A DNA stretch of 64,000 nt from a phage. The stretch lies in sequence record PZ445526.1. The stretch is one strand, 5' to 3'. Shown piece after piece: positions 24,210-29,101 of the stretch. The notes below the pieces were generated by a model. It searched no databases and was not told the DNA's origin. It was given only the letters and a program-made list of their open reading frames with translations. The translations under genes and the position numbers were made by a program. Every line of letters starts with the position of its first letter. Positions within the stretch are counted from its first letter, which is position 1.

Positions 24210-24727
24210 TAATAGCCTCGATCTTGACGAGCGAAGTTTTCAGCATTTTTCAGATAATAAAGTTTAAAGATTTCCTCAGCTGACATTCCAAGAGCAATGA
24301 ATTTATTCATGAAAAAGTGAAATTGATCAATCAGTTCAAATTTAATTTCAAGTTGATCTTCAGGAGATAAATCTTGAATTTTCTTGGATTGCATTTCAGA
24401 ATAACGTTTTTTCCAAGGTTTCCATACAGCAGAAGCTTCTTTTTCACCATTACTCATACCACCAAGAGAAGTATATAGCTCGCGAGTTTCATCTGCGATA
24501 TAATCGTCTTGGTTTCGCAGCCAAGCAAGAACTTCTCCTGCAGTTTCAAGTGAATCAGGATGACGATTTGTTTCTGGTTTATCATTAGCCAAACGAATCT
24601 GTAAATGCCGCTGCATGTCAAGCATAACCTGTAGTGGGTCAATATTGTGCATAATATTCTCAGCATATGCACGATTTGCTTTATCAACACCTTCGATCAA
24701 ATGAGCACATTCATTAAAGTGAGCCAT
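24209..24727 (-). CDS. 56: dCTP pyrophosphatase gp56 (MazG-like)
   Basis: 172 aa from internal ATG (MAHFNECAHLIEG...) with SD AAAGGAAAAA; size and position match T4 gp56; track start extended 31 codons. Confidence 0.8.
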   Translation of the reverse strand: MAHFNECAHLIEGVDKANRAYAENIMHNIDPLQVMLDMQRHLQIRLANDKPETNRHPDSLETAGEVLAWLRNQDDYIADETRELYTSLGGMSNGEKEASAVWKPWKKRYSEMQSKKIQDLSPEDQLEIKFELIDQFHFFMNKFIALGMSAEEIFKLYYLKNAENFARQDRGY

Positions 24728-24798
24728 TATTTTTCCTTTCAATTCATGGGTTAGTAGATTAATTATACAATAAATATATAAAGCAATAAGGAGGACAT

Positions 24799-24999
24799 AT
24801 GGTACAAAAATTAATGGCACTTGTTAATGCCATCAAAGGTAATAAAAAGCGTATAGCTTTTACTATTTCTGCTATGGTAGGAATTTTACTCTGGAACTTT
24901 ATTTTATCACCTGTTGCAATTGCACATGGTATTAATATTCCAGTAGTTACTCTTGATACATTCGTAGATTTAGCATTTGCTTTAGTTGGGTTAATTTAA
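24799..24999 (+). CDS. 66-aa predicted membrane protein on the plus strand
   Basis: Strong SD TAAGGAGG 4 nt before ATG; two hydrophobic segments; convergent with and overlapping the primase stop. Confidence 0.5.
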   Translation: MVQKLMALVNAIKGNKKRIAFTISAMVGILLWNFILSPVAIAHGINIPVVTLDTFVDLAFALVGLI

Positions 25000-26024
25000 A
25001 TCTTAGCATATTTAGATAGCCGCATTTTAGCCATCAACCCCTGGGCAATATTATTTTTCATATATTCCATAATTTGTTCAGGGGTTGCACCTTCCTTTTT
25101 AATCATATCATTAACATCTTTTGATTTCCAGGGAGATTTATCCCAAAACATAACCCTTTCTCCTGCATCAACTAATTTAGTCATTCGCTTAATAGTGTCA
25201 GGATGACGAGGTTCATTATCTAAAACCCACACACGTCTATCTTTAAATGGAACAACTTCTAGGTCTAATTGACCACCCGTAATAGCTATACCATTTTCAA
25301 TAAAAAGTGAATCTATAGGTCCTTCTAGAACATATACATCACCATCTTTAACTCGTTCGACTCCATAGATTTTTGTTGCCTCAGGATAAGCTTTGATGGT
25401 TATATATTTTTGAGGAGCATCTTTCTTTAATGCACGTCCTTGAAAAGACTCAGCTTTTCCATTAGCATTATAAATTGGAATAACAAGACGAGGCTCAGGT
25501 ATTTCCTTTTTATATGTTCCGGGTGCTATACTATTAACTAATTTAGGCCATTCGGTTGTAAACCAAAGATATTTCCATTTATCCTTTGGAATACAACGAG
25601 CTTTTACATATTTTATAATTGGATGGTCTTCCGCCAGTTTATCTAATCTAACACATGACGGAAGAGATTTAATTATTTTCTTCTCAGGTTGTTTAGGAAG
25701 TTCTTTAGGTTTTTCTACTGGACGACTTTTACCTTTTTCTTTTCTTATTTCAAAGATATACTCACGATATAAATCAGGTTCAAACTCCTTTAAATATATT
25801 CCGATTGGTGCATGATAGTTACAGTTATAACAATGAATATTTCCTTCATTATTATCACCATAATACCATCCACGAGCTTTATTCTGGTCGGTTTTTGAAT
25901 CTCCACAAACAGGGCATCTAAACCGCAATTTAAAAGTTGAACTATTATTTACTTGTGTGAATTTAGGTAAATGAGCTAATGCACGGTATGCAAACTCATT
26001 ATCAATCCAAGGTATTGATGACAT
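24996..26024 (-). CDS. 61: DNA primase gp61
   Basis: 342 aa; N-terminal zinc ribbon (CPVCGDS ... CYNC); size matches T4 gp61. Confidence 0.9.
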   Translation of the reverse strand: MSSIPWIDNEFAYRALAHLPKFTQVNNSSTFKLRFRCPVCGDSKTDQNKARGWYYGDNNEGNIHCYNCNYHAPIGIYLKEFEPDLYREYIFEIRKEKGKSRPVEKPKELPKQPEKKIIKSLPSCVRLDKLAEDHPIIKYVKARCIPKDKWKYLWFTTEWPKLVNSIAPGTYKKEIPEPRLVIPIYNANGKAESFQGRALKKDAPQKYITIKAYPEATKIYGVERVKDGDVYVLEGPIDSLFIENGIAITGGQLDLEVVPFKDRRVWVLDNEPRHPDTIKRMTKLVDAGERVMFWDKSPWKSKDVNDMIKKEGATPEQIMEYMKNNIAQGLMAKMRLSKYAKI

Positions 26025-26026
26025 TT

Positions 26027-26191
26027 TTACTCTTCTTTTTCTTTAGATTCCTCTTTTTTCTTTTTAGGAATCTGTTCAGGACCTTTATTTACTACAGCGC
26101 CTGACGTTGTTCCAGTAGAGATATTTTCAGGATTACCACCTGAATCTCCAGCTACCATATCTTCTTTAATAAATTCTTTATATGTTTTCAT
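26027..26191 (-). CDS. 54-aa Lys-rich hydrophilic protein (not in ORF track)
   Basis: MKTYKEFIKEDMVAGDSGG...KKKKEESKEKEE; SD AGAGGT; stop 2 nt before primase ATG. Confidence 0.35.
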   Translation of the reverse strand: MKTYKEFIKEDMVAGDSGGNPENISTGTTSGAVVNKGPEQIPKKKKEESKEKEE

Positions 26192-26192
26192 A

Positions 26193-26819
26193 TTAACCTC
26201 TATTCATAAAAGCATTAAAAATTTGGTCATCAATAGAAACATTTACTTTAGACTGTTTTTCAGATGGCAATTCATATCCACATATTACAATTTTATGATC
26301 AATATCAAAATACACAGAAGCAATATGATTAATGATATTTTCAGTGAAGTCTAAATCAACATCAATGTCTTTTTGACCAAAGCCCAAAGGATAAATAATG
26401 CGAGTAATTCGATTATCTTTAACAAAGATTCCACCGACATACTCTGTGCTGCGTTTAAAGTCTACACGCCGACGAAATGAAAAATATTCAGGCTCTTTAT
26501 GAGCTCGGCTCATAGGGCACAACGAATAACTAGAATAAGAGATGTCAAATCCTACGCCTTCAATATGAACTAAATTGTCATGATTAAACCAATTATAATC
26601 ATATGCCAAGTCCATTAGATTGTCATATGTGAAAGGCACCGGATTAACATCATTGGTCACAAGCATATAATTAGCAACTGCTATAATTTCATTATTTTTA
26701 ACGAATACAAACCGTGATTGATGCGAATGACCTGGACCTGCGTTTTCACGATTAATGATATAACACTGGGCACCTTTATATTTGTACGTGTCTTTACACT
26801 TGTGCATTTGATAAAGCAT
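26193..26819 (-). CDS. hypothetical protein (208 aa), 61.2-position accessory gene
   Basis: ORF track, ATG start; between primase and sp. Confidence 0.55.
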   Translation of the reverse strand: MLYQMHKCKDTYKYKGAQCYIINRENAGPGHSHQSRFVFVKNNEIIAVANYMLVTNDVNPVPFTYDNLMDLAYDYNWFNHDNLVHIEGVGFDISYSSYSLCPMSRAHKEPEYFSFRRRVDFKRSTEYVGGIFVKDNRITRIIYPLGFGQKDIDVDLDFTENIINHIASVYFDIDHKIVICGYELPSEKQSKVNVSIDDQIFNAFMNRG

Positions 26820-27112
26820 TATTCACCTACCACTTCAGCGATGATATTTTTATTATTAAAGTTTTTATCGCAATACAGAACATAATTATACTGCATTACA
26901 CCACCAGACTTAAGTTGTTTTTGAACTTCAGCTTTCATTTCAGGACGATCACGCTCAACGATATTCATAATATCTGCTTCAATTTGAGTTTCAACCTCAG
27001 TCTGATCTGCAGTCATAGACCATTCACACAAATCTTTATCATAACCTGCCATAGCAGGCTGAGCAGCACAAGAAGCTAAAGCAAAAATTGTAGCAAAGAT
27101 AAATTTTTTCAT
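26819..27112 (-). CDS. sp: spackle periplasmic protein Sp
   Basis: 97 aa with signal peptide MKKFIFATIFALASCAAQPAMA; size and position match T4 sp (61.3). Confidence 0.75.
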   Translation of the reverse strand: MKKFIFATIFALASCAAQPAMAGYDKDLCEWSMTADQTEVETQIEADIMNIVERDRPEMKAEVQKQLKSGGVMQYNYVLYCDKNFNNKNIIAEVVGE

Positions 27113-27173
27113 GATAATCTCCTCAGTAATTTATGTTTATATAGTATCTCAATTTCTAATAAAAAGTAAACAG

Positions 27174-27473
27174 TTATTTTAAAACTTTTGCATAATCACA
27201 TGTTACAAACTGTTTCTCTAGCTTGACGATTTTACGAAAGTATCTTTTGCATTGGCGAATCTGCCGCTTCGTAGGGCGAACAACAAACTTAATAAATTCC
27301 ACTCGACCAAATGGAGGACTTTCTTCTGCTGGAATATCTAACACCAATTCCCACGTATCTGCAATAAGTGCTTTGAATTGTGTATTTTTCCTGACGTTAT
27401 ACGGAGTAGGTTTAAATAAAACAATATGCATATTATCCTCGGCAATCCACTTCACATACTTTCTTGTCATCAA
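27174..27473 (-). CDS. hypothetical basic protein (99 aa), 61.4-position accessory gene
   Basis: ORF track; strongly basic; between sp and dmd. Confidence 0.5.
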   Translation of the reverse strand: MMTRKYVKWIAEDNMHIVLFKPTPYNVRKNTQFKALIADTWELVLDIPAEESPPFGRVEFIKFVVRPTKRQIRQCKRYFRKIVKLEKQFVTCDYAKVLK

Positions 27474-27615
27474 TGAAAGCTTTAACTAATGCTTTATTAA
27501 CTTCAGCATATTGAGCAGTAGCCCATTGAACGTCATCTTTCATCATTGTAGTTTCTTTAGTAAACATGCTTTCATTCTTAAACCACCCCATAAAAACTAC
27601 CTTTACCAATTCCAT
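27433..27615 (-). CDS. dmd: Dmd (discriminator of mRNA degradation, antitoxin against RnlA/LsoA)
   Basis: 60 aa, MELVKVVFMGWFKNESMF...; size and position (next to gene 41) match T4 dmd; SD GAGGAG. Confidence 0.75.
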   Translation of the reverse strand: MELVKVVFMGWFKNESMFTKETTMMKDDVQWATAQYAEVNKALVKAFIDDKKVCEVDCRG

Positions 27616-27644
27616 AACAATCTCCTCATTTAACCAACAAGACT

Positions 27645-27674
27645 ACTATACCATAGTCCTGTCAGCTTGTAAAC
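27645..27674 (-). promoter_or_regulatory. early promoter for dmd
   Basis: GTTTAC-N18-TATAGT, TGG-extended. Confidence 0.6.
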
Positions 27675-29101
27675 TAAAATTTTAATTCATTTGCCAAAGC
27701 ATCTAACTGAGCTCGAGTCGATTCATTTCTTTGATAGCGATTCTGTTCAGCCTGAATCTGTTGTGAACCTGCTACTTCACTCACTTCAGTTGGAGTAGAA
27801 TCTTGTTCAATTTCTACCCATTTCTGATTTCCTTTTTGAACACCCATCAAAAACTTATTCCATTTGTTCTTATCGCCATATCGTGATTTGATTTGCTTAA
27901 TGAGTTGTTGTTCAGCAGCTGCTAGCTCCTCGGTTTCAATGACCGCAAGCATAAAATCGGCTGTTGCTGGAAGACCGGCAGATTCTGCAATATCGCTCAT
28001 GTTAACATCGGAAGAGTCCCAAGCTTGTTTACCAACCTGTGCTGCAGTCCAAAGAACAGTTTCGGTTTCAACAGCCAGAGCACGCAATTCCTCTGCAATA
28101 GCTTTAACAGTTGTGTAACTATTTTCTGAATAAACTCTAATGCGGCAAGATTTACAAATACCTAGATAATCGACAATAATGATTGTTGGAACAAAATTCT
28201 TTTTGAGCTTCAATTCGTTTAAAAGTGATCGAAACGTATTAGCATCTGCTCCACCGGTAGGATACTGTTTAACGATTAAACGACCGAGAGTAGATTTCTC
28301 ACGCCATTTTTCCATTTTTCCTTTATACTCAGCGTAAGAAATATGCCCATCATCAATGTCATCAAGAGAAACATCAAGCATATTAGCATCAATACGCTTA
28401 GCACAGACTTCTTCTGCCATTTCCATGGAAATGTAAAGAACATTATGTCCGAGCTGTAAATAATCTGCTGCCAATGAACACAGACCTAATGACTTACCAA
28501 CGTTAACGCCAGCCATTAAAACGTTCAGTGTTCCAGTCTCAGCTCCGCCTTTAGTAATTTTGTTCAGAATTCTGAGTTTAAATGGAACCTTACGAGCTTT
28601 ATTCATATAAGATAGCCAACGTGCTTCGTAGTCATCCATCCAGTCATGACCAACGTAACTATCAAATGAAATTGATAATGCTTGGCGCATGATGTCAGGA
28701 ATAGCACCAACATCCGGCATTTTCTTATTTCGTTTTTCCGGAGGAAGCTCAGCATTAGTTTGAATTTCGATTATTTTAGACGTAGCATTAAACATCGCCC
28801 TTTGCTGAACATATTTTTCTGTTTCTTTTATTAACCAACTGTGGTCTTCCGGAGAATCAGCCAGTTTTGAAATAAGTGTTTTTACACCAGAATATTCTGT
28901 TTCAGTAAATGAACTATTTTCTAATGCAACATTTAACGCATTAATAGATGGAACGCTATGATACTCATTAACATGAGATTTAATTAATTTGAATGTATTT
29001 TTAGCTGGGCCACTTTCAAAATATTCTGAATCCATATATGGCCAAACTTTTGAAAAATAAGCTTGATCAAATATGAGATGAGAAAGAATAATTTCTACCA
29101 C
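27674..29101 (-). CDS. 41: replicative DNA helicase gp41 (DnaB-like)
   Basis: 475 aa; Walker A GVNVGKS; GTG start with SD AAGGAG 6 nt upstream; size matches T4 gp41. Confidence 0.9.
   Translation of the reverse strand: MVEIILSHLIFDQAYFSKVWPYMDSEYFESGPAKNTFKLIKSHVNEYHSVPSINALNVALENSSFTETEYSGVKTLISKLADSPEDHSWLIKETEKYVQQRAMFNATSKIIEIQTNAELPPEKRNKKMPDVGAIPDIMRQALSISFDSYVGHDWMDDYEARWLSYMNKARKVPFKLRILNKITKGGAETGTLNVLMAGVNVGKSLGLCSLAADYLQLGHNVLYISMEMAEEVCAKRIDANMLDVSLDDIDDGHISYAEYKGKMEKWREKSTLGRLIVKQYPTGGADANTFRSLLNELKLKKNFVPTIIIVDYLGICKSCRIRVYSENSYTTVKAIAEELRALAVETETVLWTAAQVGKQAWDSSDVNMSDIAESAGLPATADFMLAVIETEELAAAEQQLIKQIKSRYGDKNKWNKFLMGVQKGNQKWVEIEQDSTPTEVSEVAGSQQIQAEQNRYQRNESTRAQLDALANELKF

Follow-up and report, generated by a model that had tools for sequence, protein, structure and literature searches.

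The anti-toxin-antitoxin island of a T4-like phage and a possible capsid-targeting sequence in its gene 61.1

A previous study on phage T4 suggested that the interval dmd-tifA-sp-adfA-61.1 is a possible "anti-TA island" (Srikant, Guegler and Laub 2022; PMC9391042). Gene 61.4 of this interval is tifA, whose 85-aa protein product inhibits ToxN, the toxin of toxIN. The gene is transcribed together with dmd, and in T4 the two genes are driven by an early promoter upstream of dmd, with a promoter downstream of tifA also being mentioned (PMC9391042). A T4-type tifA in single copy fails against plasmid-borne toxIN (PMC9391042). The mutant used for the RNA-binding cluster of TifA carries K55A, R56A and R59A (PMC10853763). 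Gene 61.2 is adfA, which codes for a DarT inhibitor (PMC9391042). T4 without adfA still resists DarTG1, as most of the work is done by AdfN (gp30.3), and T4 AdfA binds DarT1 weakly, yet rescues RB69 when over-expressed (PMC11825919). Binding and neutralisation of DarT1 require a histidine at the position equivalent to residue 164 of RB69 AdfA (PMC11825919). Deletion experiments on this interval have largely been done already in T4, with nuanced results (PMC11825919, PMC9391042).

We report herein on the corresponding interval of a phage from which a 64,000-nucleotide stretch of DNA (sequence record PZ445526.1; the window in what follows) was analysed. Very probably, what this T4-like phage carries here is the anti-toxin-antitoxin island of T4, organized as two packed early transcription units. 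The assignments of the island genes are published knowledge (Srikant 2022, Guegler 2023, LeRoux 2022, Nat Commun 2025), and finding them here amounts to identifying again, in a phage closely related to T4, a counter-defence locus that has already been published. The gene identities, their order, their start sites, the dmd promoter and the retention of key residues are established here for this phage.

Organization and transcription of the interval

The phage is a Tequatrovirus, with about 98% DNA identity to T4 over the interval. When 1.9 kb were compared, identity was 97.9-98.0% with T4 and 97.9-98.4% across T4, FL33 and many Tequatroviruses, and the gene order was identical to that of T4, FL33 and the other Tequatrovirus relatives. 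The cluster is bordered downstream by the primase gene, gene 61 (24996-26024, minus strand), and upstream by the helicase gene, gene 41 (27674-29101, minus strand). This is where the first-pass annotation had placed it, and every gene from primase to helicase lies on the minus strand. The same annotation counted six ORFs, whereas the interval contains five ORFs and a promoter. Coding junctions in the interval are overlaps or gaps of 1-2 nt. The genes, their order, strand and junctions, and the early promoter all match those of T4, and each island protein differs from its T4 counterpart by one to three residues. Beyond gene 61, the flank is T6-like and lacks dam, unlike that of T4. The equivalent interval of RB69 also holds imm, imm.1 and extra ORFs.

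An early promoter, foreseen for dmd in the first-pass annotation, was found directly upstream of dmd at 27673-27645 on the minus strand. This sigma-70-type element reads (G)TTTACA, a 17-nt spacer and TATAGT with an extended TG (10 of 12 matches plus the TG in a promoter scan), and it differs from that of T4 by a single spacer base. A second, promoter-like element precedes sp (27141-27171, minus strand). It was read by eye from the sequence as GTTTAC, 19 nt and TACTAT; its score fell under the threshold of the scanner, and its spacer exceeds that of T4 by 1 nt. The late promoter TATAAATA was absent from the coding strand in the 24.5-29.3 kb scanned, where the sole near-match was TATAAACA at 27141, upstream of sp. 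A repeat scan of the interval yielded short chance-level repeats and a ribosome-binding context common to sp and dmd, TGAGGAGATTnTnATG (repeat D3), and nothing else. An Rfam scan of the whole window gave zero matches. A first transcription unit would run from the early promoter through dmd and tifA, and a second from the promoter-like site through sp, adfA and 61.1, reading on into the primase gene.

Counter-defence proteins and Spackle

We infer the biochemical activities of the island proteins, by orthology, from the published T4 and RB69 experiments. The first-pass annotation took the products of adfA and tifA, there 208 and 99 aa in length, to be positional equivalents of T4 61.2 and 61.4 and prime candidates for counter-defence roles, and it tentatively linked 61.2/61.4 to counter-defence against toxin-antitoxin systems. 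That link was correct and the counter-defence role stands, but the proteins are true orthologues whose functions have already been assigned in the literature. The expected similarity was confirmed by comparison: AdfA shares 99% of its residues with T4 gp61.2, and TifA 96.5% with T4 gp61.4; both of these T4 products have since been characterised by experiment and renamed. GenBank records mostly still call these products "hypothetical protein", and PHROGs lists both families under "unknown function", as would suit uncharacterised proteins that are candidates for new counter-defence functions. Given such identities, a Pfam AdfA family that covers the 208-aa protein end to end, and a 99-aa length that is an artefact of ORF calling, it is very improbable that they are proteins of that sort.

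The tifA gene (27174-27431, minus strand) encodes a protein with a pI of 10.0, predicted to be an RNA-binding inhibitor of the ToxN endoribonuclease. It matches Pfam PF23945/DUF7279, a family that includes T4 gp61.4, with 73.3 bits (cut-off 24.5). A PDB sequence search gave no match. Its ATG at 27431 lies one base past the dmd stop codon, with GAGG (27440-27437) ahead of it, and the resulting 85-aa frame agrees with the annotation of T4 and FL33. The 99-aa reading, which begins at TTG 27473, is a mechanical ORF that overlaps dmd by 41 nt and lacks a Shine-Dalgarno sequence; the protein is basic, in line with the earlier description, but the length given there was wrong. TifA differs from T4 gp61.4 by A50V, E82K and I83V, of which A50V is private, as it is carried by none (0/698) of the phage records. 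The RNA-binding residues K55, R56 and R59 are present and, in an alignment, invariant among this phage, T4 and RB69. The better-studied RB69 homologue, encoded in the equivalent interval, shares the basic helix KRQIRQ with this phage. However, RB69 TifA, a stronger ToxN inhibitor, has H41 and lacks a 15-aa C-terminal extension, whereas F41 and the extension are both found in the TifA of this phage. Phe at residue 41 marks a weak T4-type allele, and the Ser or His of strong inhibitors is not present. TifA would bind both ToxN and RNA, trapping ToxN as a ribonucleoprotein, so that phage transcripts are spared cutting. As F41 leads one to predict, the single-copy TifA of this phage should be weak on E. 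coli ToxN, as in T4.

Upstream of tifA lies dmd (61.5; 27433-27615, minus strand), whose 60-aa product was already recognized as Dmd in the first-pass annotation. It is an orthologue of T4 Dmd, as it matches Pfam PF17587 (E = 1e-44) and aligns over residues 1-60 with residues 1-60 of 5hy3_B, the solved, LsoA-bound "Antitoxin Dmd" (E = 5e-36). Two residues differ from T4 (I22T and T34A). Of 801 phage records, the best-matching one reaches 98.3% identity, and none has the exact allele (T22, A34). By orthology, Dmd would be an antitoxin-like inhibitor that binds and blocks the RNase toxins RnlA and LsoA, and it would replace the labile host antitoxin once host gene expression stops.

The product of adfA (26193-26819, minus strand) aligns over residues 1-208 with positions 1-211 of the 211-position profile of Pfam PF23813, "Anti-DarT factor A" (E = 5e-137; 454.5 bits, cut-off 27). 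It is identical (100%) to a protein of Yersinia phage fPS-90, and it differs from T4 AdfA by L62P and P190S. All representative homologues have P62 and most have S190, while the reference T4 protein carries L62 and P190. The core is conserved between this protein and RB69 AdfA, its better-studied homologue in the same interval. At the critical position, RB69 has R164 and is inactive until this residue is mutated to His, whereas this phage has His, since its H165 aligns with RB69 R164. AdfA would bind the ADP-ribosyltransferase DarT1 and thereby prevent ADP-ribosylation of phage DNA. With its permissive histidine, the AdfA of this phage, when well expressed, should therefore be able to neutralise DarT1; in this phage it is probably redundant with AdfN. 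AlphaFold2, given 16 homologues, produced a model of only moderate quality (pLDDT 70, pTM 0.53). Searching the PDB with this model by Foldseek retrieved nothing at E <= 0.001 (best E 0.11, with all TM-scores low), in agreement with the published statement that AdfA is without recognisable fold relatives, and a PDB search with the AdfA sequence gave no match.

The periplasmic protein Spackle inhibits the phage tail lysozyme and takes part in superinfection exclusion. Its gene, sp (61.3; 26819-27112, minus strand), overlaps the start codon of adfA with its stop codon (TAATG) and encodes 97 aa, which match Pfam PF25676 (E = 1.3e-44) and PDB 6x6o (E = 8e-62) and differ from T4 Spackle by K53E. The solved mature chain, 7cn6, begins at residue 23, after the signal peptide MKKFIFATIFALASCAAQPAMA. 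The exported protein would inhibit the tail lysozyme of a superinfecting phage in the periplasm. The first-pass annotation listed sp in a cluster described as flanked by known host-defence modulators; the gene is present and orthologous, but Spackle is no modulator of host defence.

Gene 61.1 and its possible capsid-targeting sequence

The T4 internal proteins IPI, IPII and IPIII carry a capsid-targeting sequence (CTS), are processed by the prohead protease gp21 and are injected from the head. Residues 4 and 7 of the CTS were reported to be important for targeting, and residues 8 and 10 for processing. The cleavage motif of gp21 is L/I-X-E (PMC9026906).

Gene 61.1 (26027-26191, minus strand) starts 1 nt past the adfA stop codon and encodes a protein of 54 aa. 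It had been described as Lys-rich, which is true of its tail, but the protein is net acidic overall (pI 5.5). Its first ten residues are CTS-like (MKTYKEFIKE) and are followed by a module like the N-arm of gp23* and then by a Lys/Glu tail. The N-terminus matches MKTYQEFIAE, with which T4 IPII and IPIII begin, at 8 of 10 positions, with Y4, F7, I8 and E10 retained relative to IPIII, and the N-terminus of T4 IPI equals the MKTFKEF of T4 61.1. When the N-termini of all 833 Met-initiated ORFs in the window were scored as CTSs, that of 61.1 ranked first with a score of 42, the runner-up reaching 20. Moreover, I8-K9-E10 fits the cleavage motif of gp21. Within the 61.1 family an (L/I/M)-x-E motif is conserved: the P1 residue is Glu in 49 of 55 members, with most of the others shifted by one residue, and 50 of 55 have L, I, M, F or V at P3.

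Downstream of the CTS-like segment, the protein resembles the N-terminus of gp23*, the mature major capsid protein. Residues 2-38 are 43% identical to residues 57-93 of T4 gp23 (BLASTP), with E10 opposite the P1 residue Glu65, and an HMM of the 61.1 family scored 50-56 bits on the gp23 N-termini of T4, Acinetobacter phage 133 and others. Through this alignment, gp23 F59, F62, L63 and E65 correspond to CTS positions 4, 7, 8 and 10, which links the CTS of the internal proteins to the pre-cleavage segment of gp23 and suggests an origin for the CTS. The alignment stops at about residues 93-101. Unlike gp23, 61.1 has no HK97-fold body; past the equivalent of GP93, a Lys-rich tail replaces the capsid domains.

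These features allow a reading, somewhat less likely than not, in which 61.1 is a small peptide that is carried into the prohead as cargo. Residues 1-10 would serve as the CTS, gp21 would cleave behind I-K-E10, and the freed 44-residue peptide would start like mature gp23* (the N-arm/N-fist segment). This peptide might join or tune head assembly, for example at sites that it has in common with the gp23 N-arm (scaffold core, protease or Soc-binding surface); alternatively, it might be a conserved internal peptide that is injected together with the DNA. Differences from the T4 internal proteins are considerable. 61.1 is much smaller, its gene is distant from the IP loci and belongs to an early operon without a canonical late promoter, and it is highly conserved whereas the IPs are hypervariable; its mature part resembles gp23* and no IP. 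An early-made 61.1 protein could persist until prohead assembly. A link to the Gol peptide/Lit protease system is speculation.

Two other explanations bear on the same gene. Srikant et al. proposed anti-toxin roles for "other genes in this region", and 61.1 could accordingly be a further cytoplasmic anti-toxin factor, an early small binder of some host toxin. It shares an early operon with adfA near three anti-TA genes, has no canonical late promoter nearby and, like many inhibitors, is small and without a confident fold; its AlphaFold2 model was of low confidence (pLDDT 61, pTM 0.19) and had short helices only. Arms-race genes are usually patchy, however, and 61.1 is conserved far more broadly and strongly than AdfA or TifA, matching 1397 phage records (from Escherichia, Klebsiella, Acinetobacter and Aeromonas phages) against 487 and 698, respectively. 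It is always found directly upstream of primase, even in phages without an anti-TA gene, and the sequence itself, with its CTS, protease motif and gp23-like module, points to the prohead. We therefore regard the anti-toxin role as unlikely. This constant position, seen in every related phage inspected, together with a stop codon only 2 nt ahead of the gene 61 ATG, would be well explained if 61.1 were an upstream frame that feeds ribosomes to primase by translational coupling and its peptide had no function. A pure coupling device needs no constraint on the peptide, yet 16 homologues agree without exception at sixteen positions, and the module MVAGDsGG...NIAsG..SGa...GP is retained in 51 clusters at 50% identity. 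Such conservation counts against coupling as the only role of 61.1 and makes that explanation quite improbable.

61.1 matches phrog_1823 and the C-terminus of phrog_2086, and in many related phages a module of the 61.1 type sits after a domain of about 100 aa. Were 61.1 cargo of the prohead, this domain of the long forms would equal a cleavable propeptide. No remnant of it was seen elsewhere in the window, since a family HMM run on the six-frame translation of the window matched 61.1 alone. A Pfam scan of 61.1 and its long-form homologues, up to E <= 10, returned no meaningful family. A literature search on the function of gp61.1/61.1, including any capsid-targeting signal, found nothing relevant, and 61.1 is not mentioned in the supplement text on T4 head mass spectrometry.

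Natural alleles and implications for T4-like phages

The alleles of this phage differ from those tested so far in TifA (A50V), Dmd (I22T and T34A) and AdfA (residues 62 and 190). The combination of F41 with the private A50V in TifA, and P62 and S190 in AdfA, provide natural variants with which to probe the potency of TifA and the weak binding of T4 AdfA to DarT1. As T4 AdfA is dispensable and weak, and TifA fails in single copy, the natural targets of these inhibitors may be other variants of the toxins. If 61.1 is capsid-targeted and processed by gp21, it would represent an overlooked, widely conserved head-internal peptide of T4 akin to the N-terminus of gp23, and a role of a different kind would fall to the one gene of the "anti-TA island" that is still unassigned.

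Gene content and layout between genes 41 and 61

All genes at 24.9-29.1 kb of the window lie on the minus strand, beginning in transcription order with the helicase gene 41 (27674-29101) and ending with the primase gene 61 (24996-26024). Between them are dmd (27433-27615; 60 aa), tifA (61.4, coding for a basic protein; 27174-27431; 85 aa), sp (26819-27112; 97 aa), adfA (61.2; 26193-26819; 208 aa) and 61.1 (26027-26191; 54 aa). Gene calls on the window reproduced the coordinates and gene order of the first-pass annotation; however, the six ORFs it counted are five ORFs and a promoter. The 99-aa protein that it had listed is a mechanical ORF from TTG 27473, which lacks a ribosome-binding site and shares 41 nt with dmd. 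tifA has its ATG at 27431, one base past the dmd stop codon, with GAGG (27440-27437) four bases upstream.

The early promoter it proposed for dmd is present, as the promoter scan found an early-type element, (G)TTTACA-17-TG-TATAGT, at 27673-27645 (minus strand), which differs from that of T4 by a single spacer base. A promoter-like element upstream of sp, GTTTAC-19-TACTAT (27171-27141, minus strand), was not called by the scanner; its spacer is 19 nt, compared with 18 nt in T4, and a promoter downstream of tifA is mentioned in a study on T4 (PMC9391042). The sequence TATAAACA, which nearly matches the late-promoter box of T4, overlaps the sp element (27141-27171), and TGAGGAGATTnTnATG is common to the start regions of sp and dmd. 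The sp/adfA junction is TAATG, the adfA/61.1 and dmd/tifA junctions are TAATATG, and the 61.1/gene 61 junction is TAAAAATG. Since coding junctions here overlap or are 1-2 nt apart, the genes form two compact early operons.

A Megablast search of 25900-27800 against 50,697 phage records gave full-length matches (97.9-98.4% identity) to T4, T6, FL33/FL34, RB55/59 and many other Tequatroviruses, and RB18 was 97% identical across a 25-kb piece spanning 26027-27615. These identities mark the phage as a T4-like coliphage that is distinct from T4. In the matching stretch of the T4 RefSeq record are 61, 61.1, 61.2, sp, 61.4, dmd and 41, all of the same lengths and joined in the same way; FL33 shares this arrangement.

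Beyond gene 61, the window (24725-24999) lacks the dam methyltransferase gene that T4 has between 56 and 61, and its 56-61 junction resembles that of T6, RB18 and phiD1 (97.9% identity). A hydrophobic, membrane-like ORF of 66 aa (24799-24999, plus strand; 56% identity to RB69 ORF029w) runs convergently toward gene 61 and shares 4 nt with the 3' end of that gene. Inside this ORF, ~160 nt downstream of gene 61, is the sole terminator-like hairpin in 24.7-27.8 kb (24811-24836, minus strand; an 11-bp stem followed by a T-run).

Counter-defense genes and their alleles

The interval is the anti-TA island of T4, carried here by a close relative of that phage, and as such is already known. Amplification of the dmd-61.4 locus lets T4 escape toxIN; the protein product of 61.4, a gene renamed tifA, neutralizes ToxN and co-precipitates with it, and 61.2 is adfA, a DarT toxin inhibitor, after LeRoux 2022 (eLife 2022; PMC9391042). 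TifA binds both ToxN and RNA, trapping the toxin in a ribonucleoprotein complex; its RNA binding was tested with a K55A R56A R59A triple mutant, and its potency is set by residue 41, where F, as in T4, gives a weak inhibitor and S or H a strong one (PMC10853763). AdfA requires a His at RB69 position 164; T4 AdfA has this His, yet binds DarT1 weakly. AdfN (gp30.3) reverses the modification, which keeps T4 resistant to DarTG1 even without adfA; T2 has no adfA (PMC11825919). Thus, the counter-defense roles that the first-pass annotation tentatively linked to 61.2 and 61.4 agree with these reports. Its finding holds, in location and in the outline of its interpretation, and the experiments suggested have largely been published. 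What is new here is confined to allelic detail and an observation on 61.1.

Pfam assigned the 208-aa protein along its whole length to PF23813, "Anti-DarT factor A" (E 5e-137), Sp to PF25676, the 85-aa protein to PF23945 (DUF7279) and Dmd to PF17587, while no family matched 61.1. The PDB holds structures of Dmd (5hy3) and Spackle, the sp product (6x6o and 7cn6); the same search found none of AdfA or TifA. Relative to T4, the changes are F4Y and I26T in 61.1, L62P and P190S in AdfA, K53E in Sp, A50V, E82K and I83V in TifA, and I22T and T34A in Dmd. Amino-acid change per nucleotide change is higher in the dmd-tifA operon (5 in 11) than in genes 41 and 61 (6 in 49), numbers too small to test.

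AdfA is 100% identical to the AdfA of Yersinia phage fPS-90, and its H165 aligns with R164 of RB69. All 16 family representatives carry P62 and a majority carry S190, and L62 and P190 of the T4 reference are the outliers; this difference might bear on the weak DarT1 binding reported for T4 AdfA. By orthology, the protein would be expected to have a capacity to neutralize DarT1, probably redundant with AdfN. TifA keeps K55, R56 and R59 and has F41; again by orthology, a single copy would be expected to act weakly against E. coli ToxN. Its K82 and V83 are found in ECML-134 as well; A50V (codon 50; 27282-27284) was absent from all 698 phage records that matched TifA. None of 801 records held an exact match to the Dmd allele (I22T plus T34A), and T4-like protection from RnlA and LsoA is expected of this ortholog.

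Distribution of the 61.1 family

In tblastn searches, 61.1 matched 1397 phage records, among them Klebsiella, Acinetobacter and Aeromonas T4-like phages, compared with 487 for AdfA and 698 for TifA. Among the phages inspected, a 61.1-family gene adjoins the primase gene on its upstream side in T4, RB69, a Klebsiella Jiaodavirus, Acinetobacter phage LemonAid and Aeromonas phage avDM1, the last of which has no other gene between 41 and 61. A single small ORF intervenes in Cronobacter phage SemperBestia. The rest of the 41-61 interval is variable cargo: RB69 has additional imm, imm.1 and four other ORFs, and in the Jiaodavirus the small genes are different.

A profile search of 1.84 billion proteins placed the family in 51 clusters. 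Many members are 130-165 aa long, with a conserved N-terminal domain of ~100 aa and the 61.1 module at the C-terminus (phrog_2086); T4 and the present phage retain only the latter. Long-form loci (~150 aa) occur in RB69 (local coordinates 2318-2784) and in two other related phages, L011 (2165-2641) and L008 (1174-1665). In RB69 the long form is divided between ORF032c (63 aa) and gp61.1 (92 aa), overlapping by 4 nt; a frameshift, pseudogene or sequencing error could account for this.

Capsid-like features of 61.1

Residues 2-38 of 61.1 are 43% identical to residues 57-93 of T4 gp23, the major capsid protein. An HMM of the 61.1 family, built without any capsid proteins, scored 50-56 bits on the gp23 N-termini of T4, Acinetobacter phage 133 and seven fragments. 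PDB chains of mature gp23* begin at residue 66, and V13 of 61.1 aligns with their residue 3; therefore, E10 corresponds to Glu65, the P1 residue of the maturation cut by gp21, the prohead protease. Past its first ten residues, 61.1 resembles the gp23* N-terminus (residues 66-93), a segment that after expansion forms the N-arm and N-fist and aids Soc binding (PMC9546572).

The first ten residues resemble the capsid-targeting sequence (CTS) of T4 internal proteins. They read MKTYKEFIKE in the window and MKTFKEFIKE in T4; in the T4 record, IPII and IPIII start with MKTYQEFIAE, sharing eight of ten residues with the former, and IPI starts with MKTFKEF. Every position reported to matter is retained (targeting, 4 and 7; processing, 8 and 10), as is I-x-E, in keeping with the gp21 cleavage motif L/I-X-E (PMC9026906). 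A CTS score of 42 put 61.1 first among the window's 833 Met-initiated ORF N-termini; the runner-up scored 20. In nearly all of 55 family members, a hydrophobic-x-Glu directly precedes the MVAGD module.

On the most economical reading of these sequence features, 61.1 would be directed to the prohead and cleaved there by gp21, a possibility that we hold tentatively and place somewhat short of probable. The product would be a 44-residue peptide that mimics gp23* at its N-terminus. Against this reading, 61.1 sits in an early operon; a scan around the gene found no canonical late promoter. Our literature search found no publication on 61.1, or on its likeness to the CTS or gp23*; some databases automatically label 61.1 homologs "major capsid domain-containing protein". 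Because T-even internal proteins are diverse defense proteins with the CTS as their sole common feature (Rao and Black; PMC3012670), 61.1 could, by analogy, be an injected anti-defense protein; however, its strong conservation points more to a role related to assembly. Prohead targeting and processing of 61.1, if true, would be of moderate interest.
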